Assembly: GCF_988243305.1 (NCBI RefSeq) | Contig: NZ_OZ547136.1 | Length of the DNA stretch: 64,000 nt | Strand: one strand, 5' to 3' | In this document: in pieces, positions 1,978 through 41,740 of the stretch | Layout of the letters: every line of letters begins with the position of its first letter | How positions within the stretch are numbered: the stretch's first letter is position 1 | The notes under the pieces: generated by a model | What the model was told of the DNA's origin: nothing | Databases searched by the model: none | What the model saw: the letters and a program-made list of their open reading frames with translations, nothing else | Program-made: the position numbers and the translations under genes

Positions 1978-1983
1978 GCTGAG

Positions 1984-2065
1984 CGGCCGGATAAGGCGTT
2001 AACGCCGCATCCGGCAATGGTGAACGATGCCTGATACGACGCATCACGCGTCTTATCAGGCCTAC
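1984..2065. repeat. REP/BIME-type repetitive extragenic palindromes (two units)
   Basis: gccggataaggcgttaacgccgcatccggca and gcctgatacgacgcatcacgcgtcttatcaggcctac, both imperfect palindromes of the E. coli REP type, between convergent ypfN and ypfH. Confidence 0.7.
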
Positions 2066-2075
2066 CCGGTTATTA

Positions 2076-2774
2076 TTACATCATTTCAATCACATCATCA
2101 TCGCCAGGCTTACCGCCGCTTAGCGCTTCGTCGAAATAATGTTTCGGAATGGTATAACGCAAGTGATCCAGGGCAAATTGCATACTGCGATTGTCGATCG
2201 CATGGCCTAAATCCTCCACGATATCCAGCGTCACGTCACCACCGGCATTGATTAACGCTTCCTGCGCCGCAACCGCATGCGCCAGATCGATAACCGGATC
2301 TTCACCACCATGAATCAAGTGAATTGTCGTGGCTGTAGACGCGGTTTCCGGCAGGCTCGCGTAGCGTCCGTTGAAGGCAATGACGCGCGAAGCAAGGCCC
2401 GGTTCGGCTTTAATGCTCTCCAGCGCCATAATCGCGCCTTGAGAGAAACCGATTAGTGCCGTGGCGTTAGCCCCTACTCCGCTCTGTTTCTGCCAGTAGC
2501 GCACCGTTTCAATAAACGTCGGCATGATGGCATCCACACGTGCCTGGCGATTATCTTCCGTAATACCCTGCACCGAAAACCACTGACGCCCCGCCGGATT
2601 ACCGCTCGGCTCCGCGCCTCCGACACTCACCACCAGCGCATCAGGAAATAGCGGCGCAAACCAGCTGCCTATTTCCCCCATTGCCACCGGGTTATCCCCG
2701 ACACCGTGGAAAAGCAGTAACAACTGTTGCGCAGGTTTATCCGGGCTTTGAACAACAAAATGGTCATGTTTCAT
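2076..2774 (-). CDS. ypfH: alpha/beta-hydrolase esterase YpfH
   Basis: ORF 2076..2798; likely start at the internal Met (MKHDHFVVQS); phospholipase/carboxylesterase-type GFSQG nucleophile elbow. Confidence 0.8.
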   Translation of the reverse strand: MKHDHFVVQSPDKPAQQLLLLFHGVGDNPVAMGEIGSWFAPLFPDALVVSVGGAEPSGNPAGRQWFSVQGITEDNRQARVDAIMPTFIETVRYWQKQSGVGANATALIGFSQGAIMALESIKAEPGLASRVIAFNGRYASLPETASTATTIHLIHGGEDPVIDLAHAVAAQEALINAGGDVTLDIVEDLGHAIDNRSMQFALDHLRYTIPKHYFDEALSGGKPGDDDVIEMM

Positions 2775-2847
2775 GGCGAACTCCTTAACTGATGTCATTA
2801 ATTTTACGCCGCTGACTCACAATGACCATGGGAGAAAATTGAAGGAG

Positions 2848-4863
2848 TCAGTGAAAAAATTGCCATTGCGTTATGCGATCGCGCAGACGCTCAGTGCGAA
2901 CATCATTAAGTGCGAACAGCGCCTGCGCGGCTTCTTCGCGTTGACGGACCAGTAACAGCTTACGGCCTGAAAGTTTAAGTGTGGTACATAACTGCGCGTC
3001 ACTGGCGTTTTTCTGTAAACGCGCACGCAGCGCCGGTAATGCCAGTTCGCTGGTTTGTAACAGACGCATTAAGCAACCTAACGACGTTAATAGCGGACGA
3101 TGAGCGAAAGCAAAACCGGCCAGTTCAAGCCAGTCGTCGTCAGAAAGGACGGCATCGTTTAGTGGATCAACAGGAAGCATTTCGCCATTCCACTGCGCGA
3201 GAGCTTGCGCATCGCGACGTAAACGGTAATGCTCACGTTCAGCCAGCTGTTTACCCGCATCACTCATCGGTAACAGCGCCATCGCCGTATAGCAACCGCT
3301 GCTGGCTTCACGATGATTACCCATTCGCACCAGCACAAAACCGCAGCGTTGCCAGAAACGCCATAACTCCCCGGTGTAACCAAAACTCACCGAAAGATAG
3401 TCGAGGTCACGCGTATATTGCAAAGCACCAGCAATAAGTTGCCGCCCTGTGCCTTCCCGCTGACGCGCCGGATGAACTGCTATCCGGCTGACCCGCCGTC
3501 CACGCAATGTCGCTGCCAGTGGATTGCTGCCGTGCGCCGCCAGCGACTGGGCCACCAGATTACCCCGAGGGCGACGAAAACCTGCCCATACCGCCTGACT
3601 GAGTTGTTGAGATAATCCACCCTCATCCACCAGCCACAGCGCCCCGGCAATCTCGTTGTCGCCAGCCGCCTGTAAAAAATGTTGCCCTGGTGCATCCATC
3701 ATCCGGCGTAAATCCAGCGGCGAGGTCCGGTAGTGCGCACCAGACAATAGCTGATAAACCTTTAACGGCGTTTCTGGCTCGCTTCGCCATAACGTTTGTT
3801 CAAATGCGGAAATGACGATATTGCCTTGTGGTGTATGGGTGAAGTTTTCATCGTCAAAAACCAGTGCCTCACTAACCATTTTTTCCAGCGGGCATCCCTG
3901 CGCCCAGCGGATCGGCTGTTGTAGTTCAAAACGGTGTAAATGCGGAAAGCGAGCGCAAAATTTCAGCAAAAAACCACGTCCGGTGCCTTCGTAGCCCTGC
4001 ACCGTAGTGGTTAACAACGTTCGAGGAAAACGCGATACCAGTTGATGCAACAACGGCGCAGGTATAGCTGCGGCTTCATCGACCACCAGCCAGTCGGCTT
4101 GCTCATCGCTGGCTAACAAGGCATCCGGTGCAATAAAGCGAAACTTCTCGCCCGCAAATTGTGCCAGTACATCCGTTGCCGCTTTTGCGGGCGCGGTGAC
4201 AATCGCACTGCCCGCAATACGAGAAATGAGTTGCCCTGCCAACGCCGATTTACCGCGCCCACGCGCAGCCGTTACCACCACCACGCCCAATGGCATGGTC
4301 AGTAGCTGCTGTAAGAGTTGCTGTTGTTCTGGTTGTGGTGCGCCGGTCGCGGGGTGCCAGTCAGTACGGGGAGCAAAATGCACCAACGTGAACGGCTGGT
4401 TTTGCCGCCAGAGGATGGCGTCGTTATTCGCCGTAAGTACACGTTTGAGATGCTGGACAAAATGCGGCGTCGCAATAGGGTCAGGGCAATCACTCCAGCG
4501 CAGCGAGTCGGCATCAGGTTGGTTTTCCCACTCTTCCCATACAGGGAGTAACAAAACCAGCCAGCTTCCCGCTTTCAACGTTCCGCTAAGTGCTGCAAAG
4601 GCAGCGGCATCAAAGCCGTGGCGGGCGTCGAATACCGCATGCCGGAATTCGCGCCCAAGTAAAGTTTGTAGCGCCGAGGGAAAACAGTGGTTTTCAGCGA
4701 CTGGCTGCGGCGAAATCCACAGCCAGTCGCCAGGTAAAGCATCACGCAACTTAAGCGCATGATCAAAACACCAACCCTCTTCCCCGCTCAACACCAGCAA
4801 GCGGCGGATCCCTTCACGTTTCATTTGCGCTGTTAATGTGTGAAGCGCAGTCAGTTCAGCCAT
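2848..4863 (-). CDS. tmcA: tRNA(Met) cytidine acetyltransferase TmcA (helicase-like ATPase plus GNAT domain)
   Basis: 671-aa ORF with Walker A GRGKS and a C-terminal acetyltransferase region; conserved synteny. Confidence 0.85.
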   Translation of the reverse strand: MAELTALHTLTAQMKREGIRRLLVLSGEEGWCFDHALKLRDALPGDWLWISPQPVAENHCFPSALQTLLGREFRHAVFDARHGFDAAAFAALSGTLKAGSWLVLLLPVWEEWENQPDADSLRWSDCPDPIATPHFVQHLKRVLTANNDAILWRQNQPFTLVHFAPRTDWHPATGAPQPEQQQLLQQLLTMPLGVVVVTAARGRGKSALAGQLISRIAGSAIVTAPAKAATDVLAQFAGEKFRFIAPDALLASDEQADWLVVDEAAAIPAPLLHQLVSRFPRTLLTTTVQGYEGTGRGFLLKFCARFPHLHRFELQQPIRWAQGCPLEKMVSEALVFDDENFTHTPQGNIVISAFEQTLWRSEPETPLKVYQLLSGAHYRTSPLDLRRMMDAPGQHFLQAAGDNEIAGALWLVDEGGLSQQLSQAVWAGFRRPRGNLVAQSLAAHGSNPLAATLRGRRVSRIAVHPARQREGTGRQLIAGALQYTRDLDYLSVSFGYTGELWRFWQRCGFVLVRMGNHREASSGCYTAMALLPMSDAGKQLAEREHYRLRRDAQALAQWNGEMLPVDPLNDAVLSDDDWLELAGFAFAHRPLLTSLGCLMRLLQTSELALPALRARLQKNASDAQLCTTLKLSGRKLLLVRQREEAAQALFALNDVRTERLRDRITQWQFFH

Positions 4864-4877
4864 CCCTGCCCCGGAAG

Positions 4878-5741
4878 TTAAATGCTTTTACCAAAAGTAT
4901 TGCATTGTGCCGGATCGCCGCTGTCGAAACCACGTTTAAACCAGCTGTAGCGTTGCTGAGAAGTACCATGAGTGAAACTGTCTGGTACTACTCGCCCCTG
5001 ACTTTGCTGTTGTAAACGGTCATCGCCGATGGCCTGCGCCGCATTCAGCGCCTCTTCCAGATCGCCGGTTTCCAGAACGCCTTGCTGCTGCATGCTATGC
5101 CCCCAGACACCGGCAAAACAGTCGGCCTGGAGTTCCATACGCACAGATAAGCGGTTCACTTCCGCCTGCGTCGCGTTTTGTTGCAGTTGACGAACTTTCG
5201 GCTCGATGCCTAACAGTTTCTGCACATGATGACCGACTTCATGGGCGATAACGTACCCCTGGGCAAAATCGCCATCCGCGCCAAGTTTGTCTTTCATGTC
5301 ATCATAGAAGGAGAGATCGATATAAACCGTGCCATCCGCCGGGCAATAGAACGGTCCCATAATGGACTGGCCCGCCCCGCAGCCGGTGCGCGTCATTCCA
5401 CGGTACATGACCAGCTTCGGTTGCTGATAGGTTTTACCCATCTTCTCGAATTGCTGTCCCCAGGTGTCTTCCGTGGTTGCCAGAATCACCGAAGTGAATT
5501 TTGCGGCTTCGTCTTCATTAGGACTAATTGACCGTGTTGATTGCTGTTGGGAAACCGGCTGTCCGGTCATCAACCCGGTTAAATCAACGCCATAGTAGCC
5601 TGCAACCAGCACGATTATCAGTAAAATCAGCCCGCCTTTACCGCTTGGCAGGCGAAAACCTGGACCGCCCATTGACGGACCACCAGAGCTGTTGCGCCTG
5701 TCTTCAACATTGTCACTTTCACGTCGCCCTTGCCAACGCAT
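4878..5741 (-). CDS. ypfJ: putative zinc metallopeptidase YpfJ
   Basis: 287-aa ORF with an N-terminal TM segment and an HEVGHH zinc-binding motif. Confidence 0.8.
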
Positions 5742-5908
5742 AGATACCTCAACAATATATTCATTATAGAAATGATCGTAGGTGGTTCAGAGGAAGATTA
5801 CCACAGGAAAGCGGGATGAAATGGCGGAGGAATGAGCGTTCAATGCACATCTTCCGAGAGCGGTTGTCTTGCCGTGCCAGCTGCACGGCAAGATGATGAA
5901 CAGAAAAA

Positions 5909-6622
5909 TCAGTCCAGCTGTACACCCAGGCGGCGGGCGACGGCTTCATAGGCTTCGATCAGGCCACCGAGGCTCTGGCGGAAACGGTCTTTGTCCATTT
6001 TCTCCAGCGTTTCTTTGTCCCACAGGCGGCTGCCGTCCGGGGAGAACTCATCGCCCAGTACCACTTTACCTTTGTACAGGCCAAACTCCAGTTTAAAGTC
6101 GACCAAAATCAGACCAGCATCATCGAACAGTTTTTTCAGCACGTCGTTCGCTTTGTAGGTCAGCTCTTTCATACGCGCCAGGTTCTCTTTACTTACCCAG
6201 CCAAAGGTTTCGCAGTAAGATTCGTTGACCATCGGATCGTGCATGGCGTCGTTTTTCAGGAACAGATCGAACAGCGGCGGGTTCAGCTCAATACCTTCTT
6301 CGATTCCAAGACGTTTCACCAGAGAGCCAGCAGCACGGTTACGCACGACACACTCAACCGGCACCATATCCAGCTTTTTCACCAGACATTCGGTATCGGA
6401 GAGCAGACGCTCCATTTGAGTCGGGATACCCGCTTCAGCCAGTTTGCTCATAATGAAGTAGTTGAACTTGTTGTTCACCATACCTTTGCGATCAAACTGC
6501 TCAATGCGCGCGCCATCCCCTGCTGACGTATCATTGCGGAATTCGAGCACCAACAGGTCCGGGTTTTCCGTGCTGTATACGGTTTTCGCTTTACCACGAT
6601 ACAACTCAGCTTGCTTTTGCAT
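5909..6622 (-). CDS. purC: phosphoribosylaminoimidazole-succinocarboxamide synthase (SAICAR synthetase)
   Basis: ORF 5909..6631; PurC sequence starts at the internal Met ([22 protein letters not shown]), 237 aa. Confidence 0.9.
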
Positions 6623-6674
6623 CTTTATCACTCCTGGGTGTGAATTAACGTTTTAAAATCTTTTGCTGTCTGGT

Positions 6675-6723
6675 GTGCCGGATGTTTTGTCAGATGCGGC
6701 AAGAACGCCTTATCCGACCTACG
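6675..6723. repeat. REP-like palindromic element
   Basis: tgccggatg...cagatgcggcaagaacgccttatccgacctac, REP-type sequence in the purC upstream intergenic region. Confidence 0.5.
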
Positions 6724-6775
6724 TCCGACAAACAAATTTAGTGCGAATTACCGCTAAAATCGCGTTTTCCTGCCG

Positions 6776-6791
6776 ACGCACACGTTTGCGT
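6776..6791. promoter_or_regulatory. candidate PurR operator (PUR box) for purC
   Basis: acgcacacgtttgcgt, a near-palindrome with one mismatch to the acgcaaacgtttgcgt-type PUR box, about 150 bp upstream of the purC start. Confidence 0.5.
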
Positions 6792-6834
6792 ATCATATCA
6801 GAAAAAAGGGCCGGATGACTCCAGCCCTGTATTT

Positions 6835-7869
6835 TTACTTGCTAAACGCAGCCTGGAAGACAGCTACCAGCGCGTCGTTCTGACTCTGAGTCAGAGTATG
6901 ACCTTTCGGATCGATGAACTGTAGGCTGCTGCGGTTATCTAAATCGCCAACCTGCAGTTTATAGTCACCGGATGCCAGGCCTGGATCGCTCGCGCCCAGT
7001 TCCTGCCAGTCGCTGTCAGACAGCGGCTTGTAAGTTACGGCCATGTTACCCTGCGAACGGGTGCTGTCGGTCACTTTCATGCCCACTTTTTCCAGCGCCG
7101 CTGGCAGACGTTGCCAAACCACATTGAACGGCCCGCGTACGACCAGCATCGGTAAACCGGTGTCATCAGCTGCACTTTGTACGTCCATAGTGGTGGAGGC
7201 ACGATTTTGCGCAGCGTTCGCGGCGTCAGTGGCAGATTTATCCAGACCGGCGGAAATAACGTTCATCATCTCCGTGCTGTAACGCTGCATGGAAGCCGCG
7301 TCTGCAACCGGTTTGCCCGCCTGTTCCAGGTTCAGCAGTTTAACCGTAACCGCCTGCTGATAACCCTGCGGCTTAACAGAGATTTGATAACGACCACGAT
7401 ACTGCTCGTCTTCGTCCAGACGGTTCCATTGTACCCAATCGGTGGTCAGTGTCTGACCAGCATCATCACGTTGGGTGATGGTGTAGTTTTTCGCCTGCAG
7501 CACGCTAACCACCTGCGGCCACAGAGTATTGCCACGACCATTTTCCACCAGCAATGAAGCGGTATCGCCCGTGAACTGGGTACGCGCGCCAGAAACCAGT
7601 GCCAGCGGCTGGGCTGGTGGACGAATGTCCAGCGCCTTACCGACAGCACCACTACCGTTGGTCACCGGGATTGCATAATCACCGGAGGTCACCGGCAAAA
7701 TCATTCCAGCCGGGGCATGAAGCTCCGCAAGCGGTGCCGCTTCCAGGTAGGCTTCATCACCACTGACCTGACGCTTATAGCGTGAGTCAGAACTACAGGC
7801 AGCGAGTAATAAAACAAGCGAAACACCCGCAACCTTTGCCAGGCGCGACTTTTGAACAGAGTAAGCCAT
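6835..7869 (-). CDS. bamC: outer membrane protein assembly lipoprotein BamC (NlpB)
   Basis: ORF 6835..7872; lipoprotein signal with lipobox LLAACSS; 344 aa from the second Met; downstream of dapA. Confidence 0.9.
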
Positions 7870-7885
7870 CAAATCTCCCTAAACT

Positions 7886-8764
7886 TTACAGCAAACCGGC
7901 ATGCTTAAGCGCCGCTCTGACCGTCTCACGACCACTGTCGGTGATTGGTGTCATTGGCAGGCGCAGCGTATCGGTCGCCACAAGACCCAGTTCCTTACAT
8001 GCCCATTTCACCGGGATTGGATTGGGTTCGACAAATAGTTTGTTGTGTAATGGCATCAGACGCTGATTAATAACGCGTGCCTCGGCAAAATGCCCTTCTG
8101 CTGCCAGTTTGCACATCTGGGCCATATCACGCGCTGCGACGTTAGCCGTAACGGAAATAACCCCATGACCGCCTAATTGCATGAAGTCCAGCGCGCTCGC
8201 ATCATCGCCGCTCAGCAGAACAAAATCATCTGAAACCAGCTCTTTGATCTGGTTTACACGCGTTAAGTTCCCTGTTGCCTCTTTGATTCCGATAATATTT
8301 TTTACTTTCGCCAGACGGCCCACCGTTTCCGGGAGCAGATCGCAGCCAGTACGGGACGGCACATTATACAGAATTTGCGGCAGGTCAGTATGTTCAGCGA
8401 TGGCTTTGAAATGCTGATACAAACCTTCTTGCGACGGACGATTGTAGTAAGGGGTTACCGTCAGGCAGCCGACGATACCACTGTCATTGAAGCGCTGCGT
8501 CAGGCTAATGGCTTCCACAGTAGCGTTAGCGCCGGTCCCGGCAATCACCGGAATGCGCCCGTCAGCCAGCTCCAGCGTCATCATCACCACATCAGCATGT
8601 TCGTCATGATTTAAGGTAGCGGACTCGCCAGTGGTGCCAACAGAAACGATCGCCGAAGTACCGCTGGCGACATGATAATCAATCAGTTTTTTCAAGCTAG
8701 CCCGACAGACATTACCTTTTTCATCCATCGGAGTAACAATCGCGACAATACTTCCCGTGAACAT
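7886..8764 (-). CDS. dapA: 4-hydroxy-tetrahydrodipicolinate synthase
   Basis: ORF 7886..8782; DapA sequence begins at the internal Met ([17 protein letters not shown]), 292 aa. Confidence 0.9.
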
Positions 8765-8909
8765 GGGCCATCCTCTGTGCAAACAAGTGTCTCAATGGTA
8801 CGTTTGGTATGGCATTAAAAGCAAGCAGACAGAACCGTTCTGATTGTTGTATGCATGTTTTTTTTATGCTTTCCTTAAGAACAACTCACCCCTTAAAGGA
8901 ATAACCAGT

Positions 8910-9482
8910 TTGACACTGTCATCGCAACATTATCTGGTGATCACTGCGTTGGGTGCCGATCGCCCTGGAATTGTGAACACCATCACCCGTCATGTCAGTA
9001 GTTGCGGCTGTAATATTGAAGACAGTCGCCTGGCGATGCTGGGAGAAGAGTTCACGTTTATCATGCTGCTTTCCGGTTCATGGAATGCCATTACTCTGAT
9101 TGAATCAACGTTACCGTTGAAAGGTGCCGAGCTGGATCTTTTAATCGTGATGAAGCGCACGACGGCGCGTCCGCGTCCGCCAATGCCAGCATCTGTCTGG
9201 GTTCAGGTCGATGTGGCAGACTCCCCGCATTTAATTGAACGCTTCACAGCACTTTTCGACGCGCATCATATGAACATTGCGGAGCTGGTGTCACGCACGC
9301 AACCTGCTGAAAATGAACGGGCTGCGCAGTTGCATATTCAGATAACCGCCCACAGCCCCGCATCTGCGGACGCAGCAAATATTGAGCAAGCGTTCAAAGC
9401 CCTATGTACAGAACTCAATGCACAAGGCAGTATTAACGTCGTCAATTATTCCCAACATGATGAACAGGATGGAGTTAAGTAA
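8910..9482 (+). CDS. gcvR: glycine cleavage system transcriptional repressor GcvR (tandem ACT domains)
   Basis: ORF 8844..9482; the conserved N-terminus (M)TLSSQHYLVITALGADRPGIV begins at a TTG codon at 8910-8912; upstream ORF residues look non-coding. Confidence 0.8.
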   Translation: MTLSSQHYLVITALGADRPGIVNTITRHVSSCGCNIEDSRLAMLGEEFTFIMLLSGSWNAITLIESTLPLKGAELDLLIVMKRTTARPRPPMPASVWVQVDVADSPHLIERFTALFDAHHMNIAELVSRTQPAENERAAQLHIQITAHSPASADAANIEQAFKALCTELNAQGSINVVNYSQHDEQDGVK

Positions 9483-9952
9483 TGAATCCACTGAAAGCCG
9501 GTGATATCGCACCGAAATTTAGCTTGCCGGATCAAGACGGAGAACAAGTTAATTTGACCGACTTCCAGGGACAGCGTGTTCTGGTTTATTTCTACCCGAA
9601 AGCCATGACCCCCGGCTGTACCGTACAGGCCTGCGGCTTACGCGATAACATGGATGAGTTGAAAAAAGCGGGCGTTGATGTGCTGGGTATCAGCACCGAT
9701 AAACCCGAAAAACTCTCCCGTTTTGCGGAAAAAGAGCTGCTTAACTTTACGCTCCTGTCTGATGAGGACCACCAGGTGTGCGAACAATTCGGCGTCTGGG
9801 GTGAAAAGTCCTTCATGGGCAAAACCTACGATGGTATTCATCGCATCAGCTTCCTGATTGACGCTGATGGCAAAATCGAACATGTCTTTGACGATTTCAA
9901 AACCAGCAATCACCACGACGTTGTGCTGAACTGGCTGAAAGAACACGCCTGA
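9482..9952 (+). CDS. bcp: thiol peroxidase Bcp (peroxiredoxin)
   Basis: 156-aa ORF with a peroxiredoxin active site around PGCT; start overlaps the gcvR stop. Confidence 0.9.
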   Translation: MNPLKAGDIAPKFSLPDQDGEQVNLTDFQGQRVLVYFYPKAMTPGCTVQACGLRDNMDELKKAGVDVLGISTDKPEKLSRFAEKELLNFTLLSDEDHQVCEQFGVWGEKSFMGKTYDGIHRISFLIDADGKIEHVFDDFKTSNHHDVVLNWLKEHA

Positions 9953-10146
9953 TTACTTTGCTCCATTCCGTGCTGGCTGCGCTTGCGGTCAGCACACCTC
10001 ACTTCTCGTGATCAAGATCACATTCTCGCTTTCCCCTGCGACACGGGTGTCGAATTCATTTTTTGCTGAACGTTAATGACCATCATTTTTGTACCGTTCA
10101 GAATCCAGTTAATACATAACTTATTGAATATATTAAATTAATCAGA

Positions 10147-10163
10147 CTGGCATCCTTTATGCA
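10147..10163 (+). promoter_or_regulatory. sigma54 (RpoN) -24/-12 promoter of the hyf operon
   Basis: cTGGCATcctttaTGCAa matches the TGGCAC-N5-TTGCA consensus with correct GG-to-GC spacing, about 40 nt upstream of the hyfA start; an adjacent sigma54 activator gene (hyfR) is in the operon. Confidence 0.6.
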
Positions 10164-10204
10164 ATATGAAATGCAATGTTTCATATCATTTTCAAGGAGC
10201 CGAC

Positions 10205-10822
10205 ATGAACCGCTTTGTGGTGGCCGAACCACTGTGGTGTACAGGATGTAATACCTGTCTCGCTGCCTGTTCGGACGTGCATAAAACGCAAGGTTTACAG
10301 CAACACCCGCGCCTGGCCCTGGCGAAGACGTCAACACTCACTGCCCCTGTCGTGTGTCATCACTGTGAGGAAGCCCCTTGCCTGCAGGTCTGCCCGGTCA
10401 ATGCCATCTCCCAGAGGGATGATGCGATCCAACTCAACGAAAGCCTTTGTATTGGCTGCAAGCTTTGCGCCGTGGTCTGCCCATTTGGCGCAATCAGCGC
10501 TACAGGAAGCCGTCCGGTGAATGCCCCTGCGCAATATGTTTTTCAGTCTGAGGGCTCACTCAAAGACGGAGAAGTAAACGCGCCGACCCAACATGCTTTG
10601 CTGCGCTGGGAACCGGGTGTCCAGACCGTCGCGGTGAAATGCGACCTGTGTGATTTCTTGCCAGGAGGTCCGGCCTGCGTTCGCGCTTGCCCGAATCAGG
10701 CGTTACGGCTGATCACCGACGATAGCCTGCAACGTCAGATGAAAGAAAAACAGCGCCTTGCCGCAAGCTGGTTTGCCAATGGCGGGGAGGATCCCCTTTC
10801 CCTCACTCAGGAGCAACGCTAA
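10205..10822 (+). CDS. hyfA: hydrogenase-4 component A, 4Fe-4S ferredoxin-type subunit
   Basis: ORF 10166..10822; multiple CxxCxxCxxxCP ferredoxin motifs; start at the internal Met (MNRFVVAEP). Confidence 0.85.
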   Translation: MNRFVVAEPLWCTGCNTCLAACSDVHKTQGLQQHPRLALAKTSTLTAPVVCHHCEEAPCLQVCPVNAISQRDDAIQLNESLCIGCKLCAVVCPFGAISATGSRPVNAPAQYVFQSEGSLKDGEVNAPTQHALLRWEPGVQTVAVKCDLCDFLPGGPACVRACPNQALRLITDDSLQRQMKEKQRLAASWFANGGEDPLSLTQEQR

Positions 10823-12840: not shown

Positions 12841-12850
12841 GGAAATCACC

Positions 12851-13798: not shown

Positions 13799-13814
13799 GG
13801 AGCACTGACGGAAT

Positions 13815-15254: not shown

Positions 15255-15265
15255 GGAGATGATGA

Positions 15266-15916: not shown

Positions 15917-15920
15917 TGAG

Positions 15921-17501: not shown

Positions 17502-19206
17502 TTCATCGTCAAATCGTGGCGAAGCGATTCTCGCCGCCCTGAAAACGCAGTTCCCCGGCGCGGTGCTGGATGAAGAGCGACAAACGCCTGAACAGGTCAC
17601 CATTACGGTGAAAATCAATCTGCTGCCTGACGTTGTGCATTATCTTTATTATCAACATGATGGCTGGCTTCCAGTCCTGTTTGGCAACGACGAGCGGACA
17701 CTTAACGGTCATTACGCGGTTTATTATGCCCTTTCTATGGAAGGGGCCGAAAAATGCTGGATCGTGGTGAAGGCACTGGTCGATGCCGACAGTCGGGAGT
17801 TTCCGTCAGTCACACCGCGCGTCCCTGCCGCGGTCTGGGGCGAGCGAGAAATTCGCGATATGTACGGGCTGATTCCGGTTGGCCTGCCGGATCAGCGTCG
17901 CCTGGTGTTGCCCGATGACTGGCCGGAAGATATGCATCCGCTGCGCAAAGATGCGATGGATTATCGACTGCGCCCTGAACCGACGACTGATTCCGAAACG
18001 TATCCGTTTATCAATGAGGGCAACAGCGATGCGCGGGTGATCCCTGTCGGCCCGATGCATATCACCTCCGATGAACCGGGTCACTTCCGCTTGTTTGTGG
18101 ATGGCGAGCAAATTGTCGATGCTGATTACCGCCTGTTTTATGTCCATCGCGGCATGGAGAAACTGGCAGAAACGCGGATGGGCTACAACGAAGTGACCTT
18201 CTTATCCGACCGCGTGTGTGGGATTTGCGGTTTTGCCCACAGTGTGGCCTATACCAACTCGGTTGAAAATGCACTGGGGATTGAGGTGCCGCAACGAGCG
18301 CATACTATTCGCTCGATTCTGCTGGAAGTCGAACGGCTGCATAGTCATTTGCTCAACCTTGGCCTCTCCTGCCATTTTGTTGGTTTTGATACCGGCTTTA
18401 TGCAATTTTTCCGCGTGCGGGAAAAGTCGATGACGATGGCGGAATTGCTGACCGGGTCGCGTAAAACCTACGGTCTGAATCTGATTGGTGGTGTTCGCCG
18501 CGATATTCTCAAAGAGCAACGTCTGCAAACGCTGAAACTGGTGCGCGAGATGCGCGCCGACGTGTCGGAGCTGGTAGAGATGCTACTTGCCACGCCGAAT
18601 ATGGAACAACGCACTCAGGGCATTGGCATTCTCGACCGACAAATCGCCCGTGATTATAGCCCCGTAGGGCCGCTGATCCGCGGCAGTGGTTTTGCCCGTG
18701 ATTTGCGCTTTGATCACCCCTACGCCGACTACGGCAATATTCCCAAAACGCTGTTTACCTTTACCGGCGGCGATGTCTTCTCCCGCGTGATGGTCCGTGT
18801 CAAAGAGACGTTTGATTCGCTGGCAATGCTGGAATTTGCCCTCGACAACATGCCAGATACCCCACTGCTGACCGAAGGCTTTAGCTATAAACCTCACGCA
18901 TTCGCGCTGGGCTTTGTTGAAGCGCCACGTGGTGAAGACGTGCACTGGAGCATGCTCGGTGATAACCAAAAATTGTTCCGCTGGCGCTGTCGTGCCGCCA
19001 CCTACGCCAACTGGCCAGTGCTGCGTTACATGCTGCGCGGCAATACCGTTTCTGACGCACCGCTAATTATCGGTAGCCTTGATCCCTGCTACTCCTGTAC
19101 CGACCGTGTGACGCTGGTTGATGTGCGCAAGCGCCAGTCAAAAACCGTGCCGTATAAAGAGATCGAACGCTACGGCATTGATCGTAACCGTTCGCCGCTG
19201 AAGTAA
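17491..19206 (+). CDS. hyfG: hydrogenase-4 large [NiFe] catalytic subunit
   Basis: ORF 17446..19206; N-terminal RVCGICG and C-terminal DPCYSCTDR Ni-Fe ligand motifs; start uncertain, probably the GTG at 17491 overlapping the hyfF end. Confidence 0.8.
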
Positions 19207-19215
19207 GGACAGAAA

Positions 19216-19761
19216 ATGCTGAAGTTACTTAAAACTATTATGCGCGCCGGAACCGCGACGGTGAAATATCCCTTCGCGCCACTGGAGGTCAGCCCAGGCT
19301 TTCGCGGGAAACCGGACCTGATGCCCAGCCAATGTATTGCCTGCGGTGCCTGCGCCTGTGCTTGTCCGGCAAATGCGCTGACTATCCAGACCGACGACCA
19401 GCAAAATACGCGCACCTGGCAGCTCTATCTGGGGCGTTGTATTTACTGCGGACGTTGTGAAGAAGTGTGCCCGACCAGAGCCATCCAGCTTACCAATAAC
19501 TTTGAACTGACCGTCACCAATAAAGCCGATCTCTATACCCGCGCGACGTTCCATCTACAACGTTGCAGCCGTTGCGAACGCCCGTTTGCCCCGCAAAAAA
19601 CCGTCGCACTGGCTGCTGAATTGTTGGCACAGCAACAAAATGCGCCACAAAACCGCGAAATGTTATGGGCGCAAGCGAGCGTCTGCCCGGAATGCAAACA
19701 ACACGCGACGCTGATTAACGACAACACAGATGTACCGCTGGTGGCTAAGGAGCAGCTATGA
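19216..19761 (+). CDS. hyfH: hydrogenase-4 component H, 4Fe-4S ferredoxin-type subunit
   Basis: 181-aa ORF with two CxxCxxCxxxCP motifs. Confidence 0.85.
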
Positions 19762-20516
19762 GTCCAGTGCTTACACAACATGTCAGCCAGCCCATCACGC
19801 TGGACGAGCAAACGCAAAAGATGAAGCGGCATTTGCTACAGGATATCCGTCGCTCAGCCTACGTTTATCGCGTCGATTGCGGCGGCTGCAACGCCTGTGA
19901 AATCGAAATTTTTGCCGCCATCACACCAGTATTCGACGCAGAACGTTTTGGCATTAAGGTTGTTTCATCACCGCGTCACGCCGATATTTTGTTATTTACT
20001 GGCGCAGTCACCCGGGCGATGCGTATGCCTGCACTTCGGGCGTATGAGTCTGCCCCCGATCATAAAATTTGTGTTTCCTACGGCGCGTGCGGTGTCGGCG
20101 GCGGTATTTTCCACGATCTTTACAGCGTCTGGGGCGGCAGCGACACCATTGTCCCCATTGATGTTTGGATCCCCGGCTGCCCGCCAACACCGGCCGCCAC
20201 CATTCACGGTTTCGCCGTGGCGCTCGGTTTGCTGCAACAGAAGATTCACGCGGTGGATTATCGCGATCCCACCGGGGTGACCATGCAACCGCTGTGGCCG
20301 CAGATCCCGCCATCACAGCGTATCGCCGTTGAGCGAGAAGCGCGGCGGCTGGCGGGCTATCGTCAAGGGCGAGAAATTTGCGATCGACTCCTGCGCCATT
20401 TAAGCGACGATCCTACAGGAAATCGGGTTAACACCTGGTTGCGCGAAGCCGACGATCCGCGTCTCAATAGTATCGTTCAGCAACTCTTTCGCGTTCTCCG
20501 GGGGTTACATGGCTGA
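19758..20516 (+). CDS. hyfI: hydrogenase-4 small subunit (NuoB-like)
   Basis: 252-aa ORF with NuoB-type cysteine motifs ([12 protein letters not shown]). Confidence 0.85.
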
Positions 20517-20922
20517 GGAGTGCAGGGAAATTGTTTTCTGGACGCTGCGAAAAAAATTTATCGCCAGTAGCGACGAGATGCCGGAACACAGCTCCCAGGT
20601 AATGTATTACTCGTTGGCTATCGGCCATCACGTTGGCGTGATTGATTGTCTGAATGTCGCCTTCCGCTGCCCACTGACGGAATACGAAGATTGGCTTGCA
20701 CTGGTCGAAGAGGAGCAAGCCCGACGTAAGATGCTGGGGGTGATGACTTTTGGTGAGATTGTTATTGACACCAGCCACACCGCCCTGTTGACCCGGGCAT
20801 TCGCGCCACTGGCAGATGACGCGACGTCGGCGTGGCAGGCGCGTAGCATTCAATTCATTCATCTGTTGGATGAAATTGTGCAGGAACCGGCTATCTATCT
20901 GATGGCCAGAAAAATTGCGTGA
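20509..20922 (+). CDS. hyfJ: hydrogenase-4 component J (HycH-like maturation/assembly factor)
   Basis: 137-aa ORF between hyfI and hyfR. Confidence 0.75.
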
Positions 20923-20951
20923 GAAGGATTTCTCATTAATAAGGACTGTTG

Positions 20952-22964
20952 ATGGCTATGTCAGACGAGGCGATGTTTGCCCCGCCGCAAGGAATAACAA
21001 TTGAAGCGGTAAACGGAATGCTCGCGGAGCGGTTAGCGCAGAAACACGGCAAGGCGTCTTTATTACGCGCCTTCATCCCGCTGCCGCCGCCGTTCAGCCC
21101 GGTACAACTTATTGAACTGCACGTTCTCAAAAGCAACTTCTATTACCGCTACCATGATGATGGCAGCGATGTGACGGCAACAGCAGAGTATCAGGGCGAG
21201 ATGGTCGATTATTCGCGTCACGCCGTCCTTCTCGGCAGTAGTGGAATGGCGGAGCTACGCTTTATTCGCACTCACGGCAGCCGTTTTACTCCCCAGGATT
21301 GCACACTGTTTAACTGGCTGGCGCGGATAATCACCCCGGTTCTGCAATCATGGCTCAATGATGAAGAACAGCAGGTGGCGCTGCGTTTGCTGGAGAAAGA
21401 TCGCGATCATCATCGGGTACTGGTGGATATCACTAATGCAGTATTGTCACATCTTGATCTCGACGATCTGATCGCTGACGTCGCTCGTGAGATCCATCAT
21501 TTTTTCGGTCTGGCTTCAGTCAGTATGGTACTGGGCGATCATCGAAAGAACGAGAAGTTCAGCCTGTGGTGCAGCGATCTTTCTGCCTCACATTGTGCGT
21601 GTCTGCCACGCTGTATGCCTGGCGAAAGTGTATTGCTGACACAAACGCTACAAACCCGACAACCGACCTTGACGCACCGTGCAGACGATCAGTTTCTCTG
21701 GCAACGCGACCCGTTATTACACTTACTTGCATCTAACGGCTGCGAATCTGCGCTCCTTATACCGCTCACCTTTGGCAACCATACACCGGGTGCATTGTTG
21801 CTGGCGCATACCTCTTCCACTCTCTTTAGTGAGGAAAACTGCCAACTACTACAACATATTGCCGATCGCATCGCTATTGCCGTTGGCAATGCCGATGCCT
21901 GGCGCAGCATGACCGATTTGCAGGAAAGCTTGCAGCAAGAAAACCACCAGCTTAGCGAGCAGCTCCTTTCGAATCTGGGCGTCGGTGACATTATCTATCA
22001 AAGCCAGGCAATGGAAGATTTGCTCCAGCAGGTAGATATTGTGGCGAAGAGCGACAGTACGGTGTTGATTTGTGGTGAAACCGGAACCGGCAAAGAGGTG
22101 ATCGCCAGAGCGATCCATCAACTTAGCCCACGACGCGACAAGCCACTGGTCAAAATCAACTGCGCTGCCATCCCCGCCAGTCTTCTGGAAAGTGAGTTAT
22201 TCGGCCATGACAAAGGGGCATTTACTGGTGCGATTAATACCCATCGTGGTCGTTTTGAAATTGCCGATGGCGGCACGTTGTTTCTCGATGAAATTGGCGA
22301 TCTGCCGTTAGAACTTCAGCCTAAACTGCTGCGCGTATTGCAGGAACGGGAAATTGAGCGTCTCGGCGGGAGTAGAACGATCCCGGTAAATGTCAGAGTC
22401 ATTGCCGCCACCAACCGTGATTTGTGGCAAATGGTTGAAGATCGCCAGTTTCGCAGCGATCTCTTTTATCGCCTGAATGTCTTCCCACTGGAACTGCCGC
22501 CACTGCGCGACCGTCCGGAAGATATCCCTCTTTTAGCAAAGCATTTCACGCAAAAAATGGCGCGCCATATGAATCGCGCAATTGACGCCATCCCGACCGA
22601 GGCGCTACGCCAGTTGATGTCGTGGGACTGGCCGGGCAACGTGCGCGAGCTGGAAAACGTGATTGAGCGAGCGGTACTACTGACTCGCGGTAAAAGTCTG
22701 AATTTACATCTTAATGTCCGACAAAGCCGTTTACTGCCGACGCTAAATGAAGATTCAGCGCTTCGCAGTTCAATGGCGCAGTTGCTGCACCCGACGACGC
22801 CAGAGAATGACGAAGAAGAACGTCAGCGCATTGTTCAGGTATTGCGAGAAACCAATGGCATTGTTGCCGGGCCCCGTGGCGCAGCGACGCGATTAGGGAT
22901 GAAGCGCACCACGCTGCTGTCACGAATGCAGCGGCTGGGGATCTCGGTTCGCGAGGTGTTGTAA
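20952..22964 (+). CDS. hyfR: sigma54-dependent transcriptional activator HyfR (FhlA family)
   Basis: ORF 20949..22964; AAA+ sigma54-interaction domain (GETGTGKE Walker A, GAFTGA motif) and a C-terminal HTH. Confidence 0.9.
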
Positions 22965-22985
22965 TCTGCTTTTGCAGGAGTATGC

Positions 22986-23834
22986 ATGAGAAACAAACTC
23001 TCTTTCGACTTGCAGTTGAGTGCCAGAAAAGCGGCAATCGCTGAACGGATTGCCGCCCATAAAATTGCCCGCAGTAAAGTGTCGGTCTTTTTAATGGCGA
23101 TGTCCGCTGGCGTGTTTATGGCGATCGGATTTACTTTTTACCTTACCGTTATCGCCGATGCCCCGTCTTCACAGGCATTAACCCATCTGGTGGGCGGCCT
23201 TTGCTTTACACTTGGCTTTATTTTGCTGGCGGTTTGCGGCACCAACCTGTTCACCTCGTCGGTAATGACGGTAATGGCAAAAAGTCGGGGCGTTATTAGT
23301 TGGCGAACTTGGCTGATTAACGCACTTCTGGTGGCCTGCGGTAATCTGGCAGGTATTGCCTGTTTCAGTTTGTTAATCTGGTTTTCCGGGCTGGTGATGA
23401 GTGAAAACGCGATGTGGGGAGTCGCGGTTTTACACTGCGCCGAGGGCAAAATGCATCATACATTTACTGAATCAGTCAGCCTCGGCATTATGTGCAATCT
23501 GATGGTTTGTCTGGCGCTGTGGATGAGTTATTGCGGACGTTCGTTATGCGACAAAATCGTCGCCATGATTTTGCCCATCATCCTGTTTGTCGCCAGTGGT
23601 TTTGAGCACTGTATCGCCAATTTGTTTGTGATTCCGTTCGCCATTGCCATTCGCCATTTCGCCCCTACCTCCTTCTGGCAACTGGCGCACAGTAGCGCAG
23701 ACAATTTTCCGGTACTGACGGTCAGCCATTTTATTACCGCCAATCTGCTCCCGGTGATGCTGGGTAATATTATCGGCGGTGCAGTGCTGGTGAGTATTTG
23801 TTATCGGGCTATTTATTTACATCAGGAACCCTAA
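22986..23834 (+). CDS. focB: formate channel FocB (FNT family)
   Basis: 282-aa membrane ORF of the formate/nitrite transporter family; last gene of the hyf operon. Confidence 0.85.
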   Translation: MRNKLSFDLQLSARKAAIAERIAAHKIARSKVSVFLMAMSAGVFMAIGFTFYLTVIADAPSSQALTHLVGGLCFTLGFILLAVCGTNLFTSSVMTVMAKSRGVISWRTWLINALLVACGNLAGIACFSLLIWFSGLVMSENAMWGVAVLHCAEGKMHHTFTESVSLGIMCNLMVCLALWMSYCGRSLCDKIVAMILPIILFVASGFEHCIANLFVIPFAIAIRHFAPTSFWQLAHSSADNFPVLTVSHFITANLLPVMLGNIIGGAVLVSICYRAIYLHQEP

Positions 23835-23837
23835 AAA

Positions 23838-23867
23838 TCAGCCCGGCGAAACAGTTCGTCGGGCTGA
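23838..23867. terminator. bidirectional intrinsic terminator hairpin (focB / perM convergent)
   Basis: cagcccggcgaaacagttcgtcgggctg forms a 7-bp GC-rich stem between convergent genes. Confidence 0.55.
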
Positions 23868-23870
23868 AGA

Positions 23871-24932
23871 TTATTCTTGCGCGATTTGCCCATCGGGCCA
23901 GGCGTGAATCACGGCTTTGATCAGCGTCGCCAATGGAATGGCGAAGAATACGCCCCAGAATCCCCACAAACCACCGAAGATCACTACTGATAAAATAATG
24001 ACCAGCGGATGCAGGTTAACCGCTTCGGAGAACAACACAGGTACTAACAGGTTGCCGTCCAGCGCCTGAATGATCAGATACACCGCGAAGCAGCTCCAGA
24101 ATTCCGTGCCAGCACCAAACTGGAATAGCGCCACGCCAACCACCGGAATGGTCACCACAAATGCACCAATGTACGGAATAAGTACCGAGAAGCCGACCAG
24201 CACCGCCAGCAGCAGCGAATAGTTCAGCCCGAAGAGTAAGAATCCCAGCCAGGTGGCGATCCCCACCACGATCATCTCCAGCACTTTGCCGCGGATATAG
24301 TTGGTGATTTGTTGATTCATCTCCTTCCATACCTGTCCTGCCAGTCCACGGTTACGTGGCAGCACCCGGCGAACGGCGTTCAGCATCTGCTCTTTGTCTT
24401 TCAGCAGGAAGAAGACCATCAATGGCACCAGCACCAGATAGACAGCTATGGTCAGCAAACCGACCAGCGAGGCGAGGGAAATTTTCACCACCGAATCGCC
24501 CATGGTCAGCATCCGACTGCGCATATTTTCGGCCATTGCATCAATAATGCCCGCATCCATCAACGCCGGATAGCGGCGCGGCAACGTGGCGGCAAAGTCA
24601 GAAAGCTTATTGAGCATCCCCGGCATATCGCGAATTAAGTAGATGCCCTGCTGCCAGGCGATAGGCAATACCACGAACGCCATCAGTAGCAATATACCGA
24701 CGAAAACCACCAATACAATCGACGTCGCCCAGCGGCGGGAGCAGCCAATAGATTGCAGGCGCACGGTTGGCCATTCCAGCAAATAGGCCAGCACAATAGC
24801 CACCAGCAACGGAGCAAGCAGGCCACTAAAGAAAAAGATAATGCCAAATCCGGCAACTAAAATAACCAGCAAGGCAATCGCTTCCGGGTCGCTAAAACGG
24901 CGGCGATACCATTGCATCAACATTTCGAGCAT
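23871..24932 (-). CDS. perM: AI-2E family putative permease PerM (YfgO)
   Basis: 353-aa polytopic membrane ORF; conserved synteny. Confidence 0.8.
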   Translation of the reverse strand: MLEMLMQWYRRRFSDPEAIALLVILVAGFGIIFFFSGLLAPLLVAIVLAYLLEWPTVRLQSIGCSRRWATSIVLVVFVGILLLMAFVVLPIAWQQGIYLIRDMPGMLNKLSDFAATLPRRYPALMDAGIIDAMAENMRSRMLTMGDSVVKISLASLVGLLTIAVYLVLVPLMVFFLLKDKEQMLNAVRRVLPRNRGLAGQVWKEMNQQITNYIRGKVLEMIVVGIATWLGFLLFGLNYSLLLAVLVGFSVLIPYIGAFVVTIPVVGVALFQFGAGTEFWSCFAVYLIIQALDGNLLVPVLFSEAVNLHPLVIILSVVIFGGLWGFWGVFFAIPLATLIKAVIHAWPDGQIAQE

Positions 24933-25144
24933 AAAGACCTTCCCTGAACCTCAAGAGCGGGATTGCGATCCGCAATTGTATCGAAATGTCACAAAAAAGA
25001 CTTCGCTTTTTATGACGGATTCAGGAAACTGAAAAGTCATTTGAGTGGGCTAATCTTCGCCGTTACACTCAAAGGCGGCGCGGTGGGAACGATATTTCAC
25101 AGTATCGGTCAAATGACTATCTTCAGAAATACAGGATAGAGGTT

Positions 25145-26608
25145 ATGTTCAGGCAGTTGAAAAAAAACCTGGTTGCAACCCTCATTGCTGCTATGACCAT
25201 TGGTCAGGTAGCCCCGGCGTTTGCCGACAGCGCAGACACCTTGCCGGATATGGGAACCTCCGCAGGAAGCACGCTTTCCATTGGTCAGGAAATGCAGATG
25301 GGCGACTATTATGTCCGCCAGTTACGCGGCAGCGCGCCGTTAATTAATGACCCGCTGTTAACGCAATATATTAATTCGCTGGGGATGCGTCTGGTTTCGC
25401 ATGCCAATTCGGTTAAGACACCGTTTCATTTCTTTCTGATCAACAACGACGAAATTAACGCCTTTGCTTTCTTTGGCGGCAACGTGGTGCTGCACTCTGC
25501 CCTGTTCCGTTATTCCGATAACGAAAGTCAACTGGCTTCAGTTATGGCGCACGAAATCTCCCACGTCACCCAACGTCACCTGGCGCGAGCGATGGAAGAT
25601 CAGCAGCGCAGCGCGCCGCTGACCTGGGTCGGCGCGTTAGGTTCTATTTTACTGGCGATGGCCAGTCCGCAGGCGGGGATGGCTGCGCTGACCGGTACAC
25701 TGGCGGGAACGCGCCAGGGGATGATCAGCTTCACCCAGCAAAATGAACAGGAAGCGGATCGCATTGGTATTCAGGTGCTGCAACGCTCAGGATTCGATCC
25801 GCAGGCGATGCCGACCTTCCTCGAAAAATTGCTCGATCAGGCGCGTTACTCCTCGCGTCCGCCGGAAATTTTATTGACTCACCCATTGCCGGAAAGTCGT
25901 CTGGCAGATGCCCGCAACCGTGCTAATCAGATGCGCCCGATGGTGGTGCAGTCGTCGGAAGATTTCTATCTGGCGAAAGCGCGCACACTGGGGATGTATA
26001 ATTCCGGACGTAACCAGCTCACCAGTGATTTGCTGGATGAATGGGCGAAAGGAAACGTTCGTCAGCAACGAGCGGCGCAATATGGTCGTGCTTTACAGGC
26101 GATGGAAGCCAATAAATACGACGAGGCGCGTAAAACGCTGCAACCGTTACTGGCGGCAGAACCTGGCAACGCATGGTATCTCGATCTGGCTACCGATATC
26201 GATCTTGGGCAAAACAAAGCCAATGAGGCGATCAATCGTCTGAAAAATGCCCGCGATTTACGCACCAATCCGGTGTTGCAGCTCAACCTGGCGAACGCTT
26301 ATCTGCAAGGCGGTCAACCACAAGAAGCGGCCAATATTCTGAATCGCTACACCTTTAATAATAAAGATGACAGCAACGGCTGGGATTTACTGGCACAGGC
26401 GGAAGCCGCGCTAAATAACCGCGATCAGGAACTGGCTGCGCGAGCAGAAGGTTATGCGCTCGCCGGACGACTCGATCAGGCCATTTCGCTGTTGAGTAGC
26501 GCCAGTTCGCAGGTGAAATTAGGCAGCCTGCAACAAGCGCGTTACGATGCGCGCATCGACCAGTTGCGCCAGCTGCAGGAACGCTTTAAGCCTTATACCA
26601 AGATGTAA
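25145..26608 (+). CDS. bepA: periplasmic beta-barrel assembly-enhancing protease BepA (M48 peptidase plus TPR)
   Basis: 487-aa ORF with a signal peptide, HEISH zinc motif and C-terminal TPR-like region. Confidence 0.9.
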
Positions 26609-26628
26609 TTCGCATTAAAGGAAGAACA

Positions 26629-26988
26629 ATGACCAAACAGGTAAAAATCTACCATAACCCACGCTGTTCAAAGAGCCGGGAAACGCTGAATCTGCTGAAA
26701 GAAAACGGCGTGGAGCCAGAAGTGGTGCTCTACCTTGAGACACCCGCCGATGCGGCAACGCTGCGTGATTTGCTGAAAATGCTGGGGATGAATAGCGCCC
26801 GTGAATTGATGCGCCAGAAAGAGGATCTTTATAAAGAACTGAACCTGGCTAACAGTTCGCTTAGCGAAGAGGCGCTGATTCAGGCAATGGTGGATAATCC
26901 GAAGCTAATGGAGCGCCCGATTGTGGTCGCGGATGGCAAAGCGCGGATTGGTCGTCCACCGGAGCAGGTACTGGAAATCGTGGGTTAA
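26629..26988 (+). CDS. yfgD: ArsC-family protein YfgD (arsenate reductase-like)
   Basis: 119-aa ORF with the ArsC-type N-terminus MTKQVKIYHNPRCSKSR. Confidence 0.85.
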   Translation: MTKQVKIYHNPRCSKSRETLNLLKENGVEPEVVLYLETPADAATLRDLLKMLGMNSARELMRQKEDLYKELNLANSSLSEEALIQAMVDNPKLMERPIVVADGKARIGRPPEQVLEIVG

Positions 26989-27018
26989 GAAGTGCTCCAT
27001 CGCTAGTTGAAGCACATT

Positions 27019-27055
27019 GCCGGATGCGACGCTTGCCGCGTCTTATCCGGCCTAC
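27019..27055. repeat. REP element
   Basis: gccggatgcgacgcttgccgcgtcttatccggcctac, canonical REP palindrome between convergent yfgD and hda. Confidence 0.7.
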
Positions 27056-41725: not shown

Positions 41726-41740
41726 GAATGACCTGATACT

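Follow-up and report, generated by a model that had tools for sequence, protein, structure and literature searches.

REP palindromes at three intergenic sites of an Escherichia coli chromosome segment, and what their absence from two insertions does and does not say

The REP palindromes of Escherichia coli are thought to descend from non-autonomous elements that were spread by a domesticated transposase, TnpA(REP)/RAYT, the target of which is a GTAG head together with a bulged hairpin on single-stranded DNA. Both the GTAG and the bulge are needed by TnpA(REP), which cleaves at CT beside REPs (PMC8266576). In MG1655 the literature count stands at 355 REP elements with 697 units, convergent cases making up about 60% of the elements and tandem cases about 40% (Harris et al. 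2026 preprint). REP325 partly terminates transcription in a Rho-dependent way and stabilises mRNA; across REPs such effects vary with context and are frequently absent (Harris et al. 2026 preprint).

The window analysed here, 64,000 nucleotides in length, is E. coli chromosome running from yffB/dapE to hisS. It is not a copy of AF40, from which it differs in the insert at the guaA end and to which it is 99.0-99.7% identical. A first-pass annotation had placed REP/BIME palindromes after ypfN (site 1), upstream of purC (site 2) and after yfgD (site 3), and had taken their absence from two insertions (39.96-43.29 kb and 48.0-59.6 kb) as consistent with foreign origin. Our main reading, to which we assign a probability of about 0.9, is that these are ordinary REPs (a Y+Z2 BIME, a degenerate Y, a Z2-like unit and two decayed copies) acting locally, and that their absence from the insertions reflects chance and gene layout.

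We scanned the window with R1, a covariance model built from 16 K-12 REPs at other, unlinked loci and run with filters off. This returned four units, all at the three sites, the remaining matches with E < 0.01 being opposite-strand echoes. The 14-mer CTTATCMGGCCTAC, allowed up to 2 mismatches, matched only at 2052, 6709 and 27042, compared with an average of 0.43 matches in shuffled sequences. The Rfam naRNA4 model matched over its full length at 1985-2062 with 85.7 bits (gathering score 59.5), and at a permissive threshold its further matches fell only at sites 2 and 3. A 39-nt fixed-spacing pattern had no match in the window, because REP types vary in loop length. One hairpin with REP-like arms, at 3467-3488 in tmcA (16.3 bits, E = 0.05), was rejected: it is coding and has neither inner stem nor tail. 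The units carry no curated REP names, since the K-12 RefSeq feature table used here lists no REP features. The three sites are thus far above chance expectation, the REP/BIME label is correct, and the four units are confirmed as ordinary E. coli REPs. The family is repeated and dispersed, with at least 30 units in 200 kb of K-12, and the site-1 query matches a median of 3 places per genome. K-12 and AF40 carry the same three sites with five units, and none besides in 50 kb. The features are listed below, with type names (Y, Z1, Z2) as in PMC8266576.

1981-2016, minus strand: REP unit A, Y type (R1 46.2 bits, E = 4.5e-10; AA/GC bulge in the hairpin)
2017-2027, unstranded: linker of 11 nt, ATGGTGAACGA (alignment to the naRNA4 consensus, model positions 33-44)
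2028-2066, plus strand: REP unit B, long Z2 type (R1 41.5 bits, E = 8e-9; fold; K-12 comparison)
6676-6730, minus strand: extended hairpin around unit C (RNA fold -26.5 kcal/mol, z = -4.67, 0/200 shuffles equally stable)
6688-6723, plus strand: REP unit C, degenerate Y type (R1 29.2 bits, E = 1.7e-5)
6776-6828, minus strand: site-2 context, comprising the bamC terminator, a -10-like sequence and a PurR box (terminator scan and sequence)
27018-27056, plus strand: REP unit D, long Z2-like (R1 49.4 bits, E = 6e-11; fold)
27067-27078, unstranded: 12-nt stub GCATATCCGACA of a second, inverted Y-type unit (alignment)
47942-47969, minus strand: truncated Z2-type REP at the xseA border (nhmmer E = 9e-4, model positions 1-26)

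With the E. coli Y, Z1 and Z2 types and the BIME-2-type Y+Z2 combination, these elements share the consensus, the bulged imperfect hairpin, the extragenic position, the GTAG/CTAC tail (three of four units) and, at site 1, the inverted pair with a short linker. Fold z-scores of the REP hairpins range from -2.5 to -4.7 with the conserved AA/GC bulge present, as a stem-bulge-stem fold in units A, C and D and reduced to one mismatch in unit B. GTAG is found in units B, C and D, while neither unit A nor the xseA remnant has it. Each of the four units is in a spacer, two of these spacers being between convergent genes, and unit C is probably in a 5′ UTR. The position at gene ends would also suit plain Rho-independent terminators, but there is practically no chance that the palindromes are terminators or chance hairpins, given E-values between 1e-5 and 1e-11 from a model of unlinked REPs and the lack of a T-tract after every one of them. 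Both identities are refuted on these grounds; terminator scans of 1900-2150 and 26900-27200 gave no intrinsic terminator-like site, and the true terminator of site 2 is the bamC hairpin at 6807-6828. Compared with K-12, the same three spacers are occupied, and the differences amount to lineage-specific decay: unit A has lost GTAG, the bulge of unit B is partly closed, the second unit of site 3 is a 12-nt stub and unit C carries three more substitutions.

At site 1 the REP after ypfN is real and resolves into two units, thus a BIME, lying between convergent ypfN and ypfH; the loss of GTAG had been overlooked. Unit A forms the left half, with a stem at 1986-2015 that starts 8 nt past the ypfN stop codon (1975-1977). 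Its GTAG is taken out by an 11-bp deletion relative to K-12 (alignment), so that the plus strand reads GAGCGG versus GTAGG in K-12. In the inverted unit B, the CTAC tail (GTAG on the minus strand) is intact, the stem ends 14 nt short of the ypfH stop, and a G-to-A change (GATACG) partly closes the conserved bulge. The TGCC/GGCA ends of the two units point toward each other. This arrangement of inverse REPs across a short linker is present at site 1 and not at sites 2 and 3 of the window; it does not match BIME-1 (Y+Z1 with a long IHF-binding linker), since the Y partner is a long Z2 rather than a 29-nt Z1 and the linker is 11 nt. Because unit A lacks GTAG and the bulge of unit B is partly closed, TnpA(REP) can probably no longer use the BIME of site 1 as a substrate.

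The Y + linker + Z2 layout of site 1 is that of naRNA4/REP325 (RF02564), with an Rfam score above gathering, and naRNA4 with HU was reported to condense DNA (Qian et al. 2015). It is nevertheless very improbable that the site-1 BIME is a naRNA4-type nucleoid-associated RNA that bridges REP cruciforms with HU and condenses the chromosome. The Rfam model fits any Y+Z2 pair; naRNA4 is unit 4 of the 12-unit REP325 array at yjdM-yjdN, whereas site 1 is another locus, ypfN/ypfH, with one unit rather than a six-pair array. The nucleoid role proposed for naRNA4 is itself disputed: Harris et al. (2026 preprint) saw no change in nucleoid size from REP325/naRNA4 and no contacts between REPs that depended on HU.

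After yfgD the REP is again real, and a remnant of a second unit had been missed. Unit D, which has CCGG arms and its CTAC tail intact, lies between convergent yfgD/arsC (stop 26988) and hda (stop about 27094). The second unit is complete in K-12 and AF40 (38.8 bits), forming a BIME there; about 32 bp of it are missing here, leaving the stub at 27067-27078. The short allele is found in 510 of 5426 genomes, E. coli 042 among them, and alignment shows that the change relative to other strains carries extra bases. Within the REP-bearing spacers, otherwise 98-99% identical, the REP ends are polymorphic spots.

For these elements, whose identity, structures and polymorphisms were observed directly, we infer functions from the literature. 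Once transcribed, the hairpins at sites 1 and 3 would be the sole strong 3′-end structures of both convergent spacers. They most likely serve as local barriers to 3′-to-5′ exonucleases, and are also predicted, most likely, to be partial Rho-dependent terminators for ypfN/ypfH and yfgD/hda. Liang et al. 2015 reportedly found reduced translation where a REP lies no more than about 15 nt from a stop codon, which would cover ypfN (8 nt) and ypfH (14 nt).

Upstream of purC the REP is likewise real, but its extent is narrower than first drawn: only 6688-6723 is REP, while 6675-6687 is an extra REP-head-like fragment. Unit C has four non-pairing positions, and the purC sense strand is its GTAG-first strand. 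The region is found in 5425 of 5426 genomes, and the K-12 copy scores 38.0 bits with R1 versus 29.2 here. The fragment included in the first-pass annotation, TGCCGGATG, is the left arm of the extended hairpin, the outer 7-bp stem of which pairs UGUCGGA (6730-6724) with UCCGGCA (6684-6678). The terminator scan placed the bamC intrinsic terminator at 6828-6807, a hairpin separate from unit C. It is followed by an extended -10-like sequence, TGATATGAT, at 6800-6792, which from its sequence would be a candidate promoter, and by the PurR box ACGCAAACGTGTGCGT at 6791-6776, the same sequence as the purC PurR site of Cho et al. 2011. Unit C lies between this operator and the purC start codon (6622). 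Since it is downstream of both the bamC terminator and the PurR box, unit C is probably a 5′-UTR element in the purC leader, a position atypical for the 3′-UTR model. That it has been domesticated there and modulates the stability of purC mRNA, its translation or the access of Rho to it, and is not a decaying 3′-UTR repeat, is a doubtful proposition.

A decayed copy that the first-pass annotation had missed lies at the xseA border. In this remnant 26 of 28 bases agree with the long-type consensus, where 0 such matches are expected; R1 gives it just 13.9 bits, and its fold z-score is +0.25. On one side it overlaps the xseA stop codon (47943-47945) by 4 nt, and on the other the adhesin gene ends with its stop at 48005. 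With 9 bp deleted (GTAGACCGG), the GTAG head and one outer arm are gone, and the remnant therefore cannot form the REP hairpin. In strains A33 and FDAARGOS_1303 the REP at xseA is full-length (L008, L009, 3724-3761; 39.5 bits). In some lineages the xseA stop codon is supplied by the REP GTAG head. The remnant is 36 bp to the left of the 48.0 kb boundary, yet inside the K-12-absent segment 47,792-59,863. One border of the adhesin-sinI-sinH segment is thus marked by a REP. BIMEs at the borders of strain-specific loops have been described by Chiapello et al., as relayed by Tobes and Pareja 2006; going by that second-hand account, the REP at the xseA border is a likeness, and the differences are that only one border is involved here and that both borders of the guaA islet are without REP.

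At three of five REP loci, small deletions relative to other strains clip a REP end: site 1 lacks 11 bp, site 3 about 32 bp and the xseA copy 9 bp. TnpA(REP) cuts CT adjoining REPs (PMC8266576). The units could on this basis be taken as still-active mobile REPIN-like elements, with the strain indels as TnpA(REP) cleavage footprints. We regard this as improbable: the window has no tnpA(REP) gene, the extra bases make the site-3 change no clean excision, and slippage of replication at hairpins would account for the deletions just as well; the direction of each change is taken from comparison with other strains. The window contains no REP-flanked tnpA(REP)/RAYT gene of the kind that defines a REPtron, and the collinear AF40 region has no annotated IS200/IS605-type gene but one, which is absent from the window. 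The ORFs of the 3.3-kb islet match AAA_15, rve_3 and Response_reg. Under the reading of ordinary, locally acting REPs, the units would have been left behind by TnpA(REP)-mobilised elements.

In the two insertions (39.96-43.29 and 48.0-59.6 kb), R1 and nhmmer gave noise-level matches only, and the reported absence of REPs holds. The best match there (11.8 bits, E = 0.82), at 50989-51026 in the adhesin gene, was dismissed as noise, and in a general search of both insertions for inverted repeats the only palindromes to appear were terminator-like or AT-rich. The comparison of density, 0 sites in 15,380 bp of insertions and 3 sites in 48,620 bp of core, shows no significant difference (Fisher p = 0.53). 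For the insertions, the local rate predicts 0.95 sites and the K-12 rate (355 elements in 4.64 Mb) 1.18, while scaling by non-coding base predicts 1.17 and by 3′-type spacer 1.33, giving P(0) = 0.26-0.39. With an expectation near one site for 15.4 kb, the absence says nothing on the origin of the segments. At the boundaries first drawn, the statement that it is consistent with foreign origin is not contradicted, but its evidential weight is near zero.

The idea that the insertions are REP-free as recent foreign DNA, which host REPs have yet to colonise, accords with the lack of any REP above noise, and the 3.3-kb islet at the guaA end is foreign-looking on separate grounds (GC 0.40-0.46, an integrase (rve_3) fragment and a rebuilt guaA end). 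We consider it unlikely all the same: about one site is expected, the insertions offer only 8 spacers with some 1.2 kb of non-coding sequence in all, and the core in the same window has REP-free runs of its own, one of 20.3 kb between 6723 and 27018 and another of about 17.5 kb. The adhesin-sinI-sinH island, in addition, has core-like GC (0.50-0.54), and sinH occurs in 1749 of the 5426 genomes with 80-100% identity. The logic of foreign origin is partly contradicted for this island by the REP-derived sequence at its left junction; counted with the K-12-absent segment, the xseA remnant gives 1 per 15.4 kb versus 1 per 16.2 kb in the core, the same density. The foreign look appears limited to the guaA islet, and to its GC, integrase fragment and rebuilt guaA end rather than its missing REPs. 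For both strain-specific segments, chance and gene layout suffice to account for the lack of REPs.

At these three spacers, conserved in K-12, the REPs are textbook features of already known biology. The methodological point is that REP presence or absence across 3-12 kb is no evidence for or against foreign origin, because a count with an expectation of about one is unusable for that purpose. For the family itself, a domesticated unit C, if true, would mean that REP function reaches leaders too.

To avoid circularity, we built a covariance model (R1) from 16 distinct aligned REPs, collected in unlinked K-12 DNA totalling 150 kb, and scanned the entire window with filters off. R1 picked out four units at the three intergenic sites where the first-pass annotation had placed REP/BIME sequences, after ypfN (site 1), upstream of purC (site 2) and after yfgD (site 3), confirming that identification and refining its description, which the sequences match.

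REP units detected by R1
1981-2016, minus strand: unit A, site 1, 46.2 bits
2028-2066, plus strand: unit B, site 1, 41.5 bits
6688-6723, plus strand: unit C, site 2, 29.2 bits
27018-27056, plus strand: unit D, site 3, 49.4 bits

The matches ranked below these were opposite-strand echoes, followed by a hairpin within tmcA (16.3 bits, E = 0.05). This hairpin (3467-3488, z = -4.07), which is also conserved in K-12, lacks the inner stem and tail of a REP; its outer arms, GCCGGATG...TATCCGGC, are perfectly REP-like, but as it lies in coding sequence this is probably coincidental. In the window the REP tail motif is confined to sites 1, 2 and 3, versus 0.43 matches expected. The Rfam naRNA4 model, in effect a model of a Y+Z2 REP pair, scored 85.7 bits at 1985-2062, and at a permissive threshold sites 2 and 3 were its sole further matches. 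Applied to K-12 and strain AF40, R1 found five units in the same three spacers and no further REP in 50 kb. The identity of the units as REPs is established directly. Types are named as in Corneloup et al. 2021 (PMC8266576), where y, z1 and z2 REPs measure 35, 29 and 37 nt, respectively.

Site 1, between the convergent ypfN and ypfH, consists of inverted Y and Z2 units whose TGCC ends lie face-to-face over an 11-nt linker. Relative to K-12, the Y unit has lost its GTAG head through an 11-bp deletion and the Z2 bulge is partly closed by a G-to-A change; this allele is common to 816 of 5426 genomes. Site 2, in a region found in 5425/5426 genomes, is a degenerate Y unit inside a longer hairpin (RNA fold, -26.5 kcal/mol, z = -4.7). 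Since it lies downstream of both the bamC intrinsic terminator and a PurR box identical in sequence to the published purC operator (Cho et al. 2011), it is probably within the purC leader. Site 3, between the convergent yfgD and hda, carries a Z2-like unit; the second, inverted Y unit present in K-12 and AF40 (38.8 bits) is reduced in the window to a 12-nt stub, an allele that 510 genomes carry, E. coli 042 among them.

For the function of these REPs we rely on the literature. TnpA(REP) recognises bulged REP hairpins with a GTAG head on single-stranded DNA (PMC8266576). Once in a transcript, a REP can be a barrier to 3′ exonucleases and a partial Rho-dependent terminator, its effects depending strongly on context (Harris et al. 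2026 preprint). The same preprint gives convergent genes as the commonest REP context. In the convergent-gene spacers of sites 1 and 3 the REPs are the only strong hairpins, and no intrinsic terminators were detected there; once transcribed, these hairpins would most likely block exonucleases and cause partial Rho-dependent termination. A nucleoid-bridging role has been proposed for naRNA4 (Qian et al. 2015) and disputed (Harris et al. 2026 preprint); that proposal concerns a locus other than site 1.

A 6-kb probe from the window matches 5425 of 5426 complete E. coli genomes at 95-100% identity, and the window is collinear with AF40 (99.0-99.7% identity) and K-12 (95.8-98.5%). Its gene order is yffB-dapE-ypfN / ypfH-tmcA-ypfJ-purC-bamC-dapA / gcvR-bcp-hyfA..R-focB / yfgO / bepA-yfgD, then hda-uraA-upp / purMN-ppk-ppx / pdeF / yfgGHI / guaAB / xseA / adhesin-sinI-sinH-yfgJ-der-bamB-yfgM-hisS. 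In both the window and AF40 hyfG is 1716 bp, versus 1668 bp in K-12 (+48 bp, window 18655-18694). Two segments are absent from K-12, and these are the two accessory insertions already annotated.

Segments absent from K-12
39,991-43,298: 3.3-kb islet at the guaA 3′ end
47,792-59,863: adhesin-sinI-sinH with diverged xseA end and yfgJ copies

The first-pass annotation had taken a lack of REPs in these insertions as consistent with foreign origin. The absence itself holds: R1 and the sequence-only profile gave noise-level matches only within 39.96-43.29 and 48.0-59.6 kb, and a general inverted-repeat scan of both insertions found no REPs, the palindromes being terminator-like or AT-rich, so that REP-like palindromes are missing from both intervals. 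The inference drawn from it carries little weight. Three sites in 48.6 kb of core predict 0.95 sites in the insertions, which total 15.4 kb; with 355 elements per genome, the rate in K-12 predicts 1.18, and the expectation is 1.17 per non-coding base or 1.33 per 3′-type spacer. An expectation of about 0.95-1.33 sites gives P(0) = 0.26-0.39 (Fisher p = 0.53). The core of the same window likewise has stretches without REPs, one of 20.3 kb and another of about 17.5 kb. Inferring foreign origin from missing REPs is thus underpowered and uninformative, and for the second insertion it is partly contradicted by a REP remnant at xseA; when this is counted with the K-12-absent segment, REP density is equal in both compartments.

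The guaA islet looks foreign on other grounds: its GC content is 0.40-0.46, and it combines an integrase fragment, a defence-type ATPase and a replacement guaA end (E-W-E-stop), about 13 bp of the old end being left at 39978-39990.

Islet products
504 aa: AAA_15/AAA_21 ATPase, defence-type PADLOC matches (PDC-M01A 1e-17, AriA, PtuA, GajA)
131 aa: rve_3 integrase fragment
256 aa: hydrophobic N-terminal stretches and receiver domain

In AF40, the closest relative, the yfgI-guaA spacer holds an IS200/IS605-family tnpA (AF40 locus L002, 3426-3884; window equivalent ~39.95 kb), with no REP found alongside. Because this spacer carries tnpA in AF40 and the islet in the window, it looks like an insertion hotspot. 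A bidirectional terminator-like hairpin (39915-39960) separates yfgI from the old guaA end, and a perfect 12-bp-stem hairpin (43225-43252) marks the right islet end, immediately before guaA.

The adhesin-sinI-sinH segment has a core-like GC content (0.50-0.54). The adhesin gene spans 48005-56047, sinH occurs in 1749/5426 E. coli genomes (80-100% identity), and the divergence from K-12 is too great for megablast to align yfgJ or the terminal ~150 bp of xseA. In the adhesin-sinI spacer, two perfectly complementary 17-nt arms flank a 1-nt centre (56092-56126, CATATTTTGCTTAATCC G GGATTAAGCAAAATATG), an inverted repeat that could be an operator or terminator. The sinH coding sequence contains, inside its first ~75 nt, a 22-nt inverted repeat (59302-59349, 95% complementary, 4-nt loop) that gave rise to a spurious Rfam microRNA match and may form a hairpin controlling translation.

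The remnant at xseA is a fifth REP element, overlooked previously: 47942-47969 on the minus strand (E = 9e-4, sequence-only profile), starting at the xseA stop codon. Of its 28 positions, 26 agree with the long-type consensus, a match equalled by 0/100 shuffles. It lies 36 bp outside the annotated 48.0-kb boundary, yet within DNA without a K-12 counterpart. In strains A33 and FDAARGOS_1303 the REP in the equivalent spacer is full-length (39.5 bits, E = 5e-8), and its GTAG head supplies the xseA TAG stop (L008 and L009, the loci of these strains, 3725-3728). In the window and AF40, 9 bp (GTAGACCGG) are missing, which creates a new TAA stop (window 47943-47945) and destroys the REP hairpin. This junction allele occurs in 347-397 genomes, versus 1749 with sinH. 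Small deletions clip REP ends at three loci, in agreement with Bachellier et al. 1997, whose title reportedly describes BIMEs as a major source of intergenic polymorphism. Nothing here is new biology. The REP at one border of the adhesin-sinI-sinH segment agrees with the association between BIMEs and strain-specific loops in E. coli reported by Chiapello et al., as cited by Tobes and Pareja 2006.
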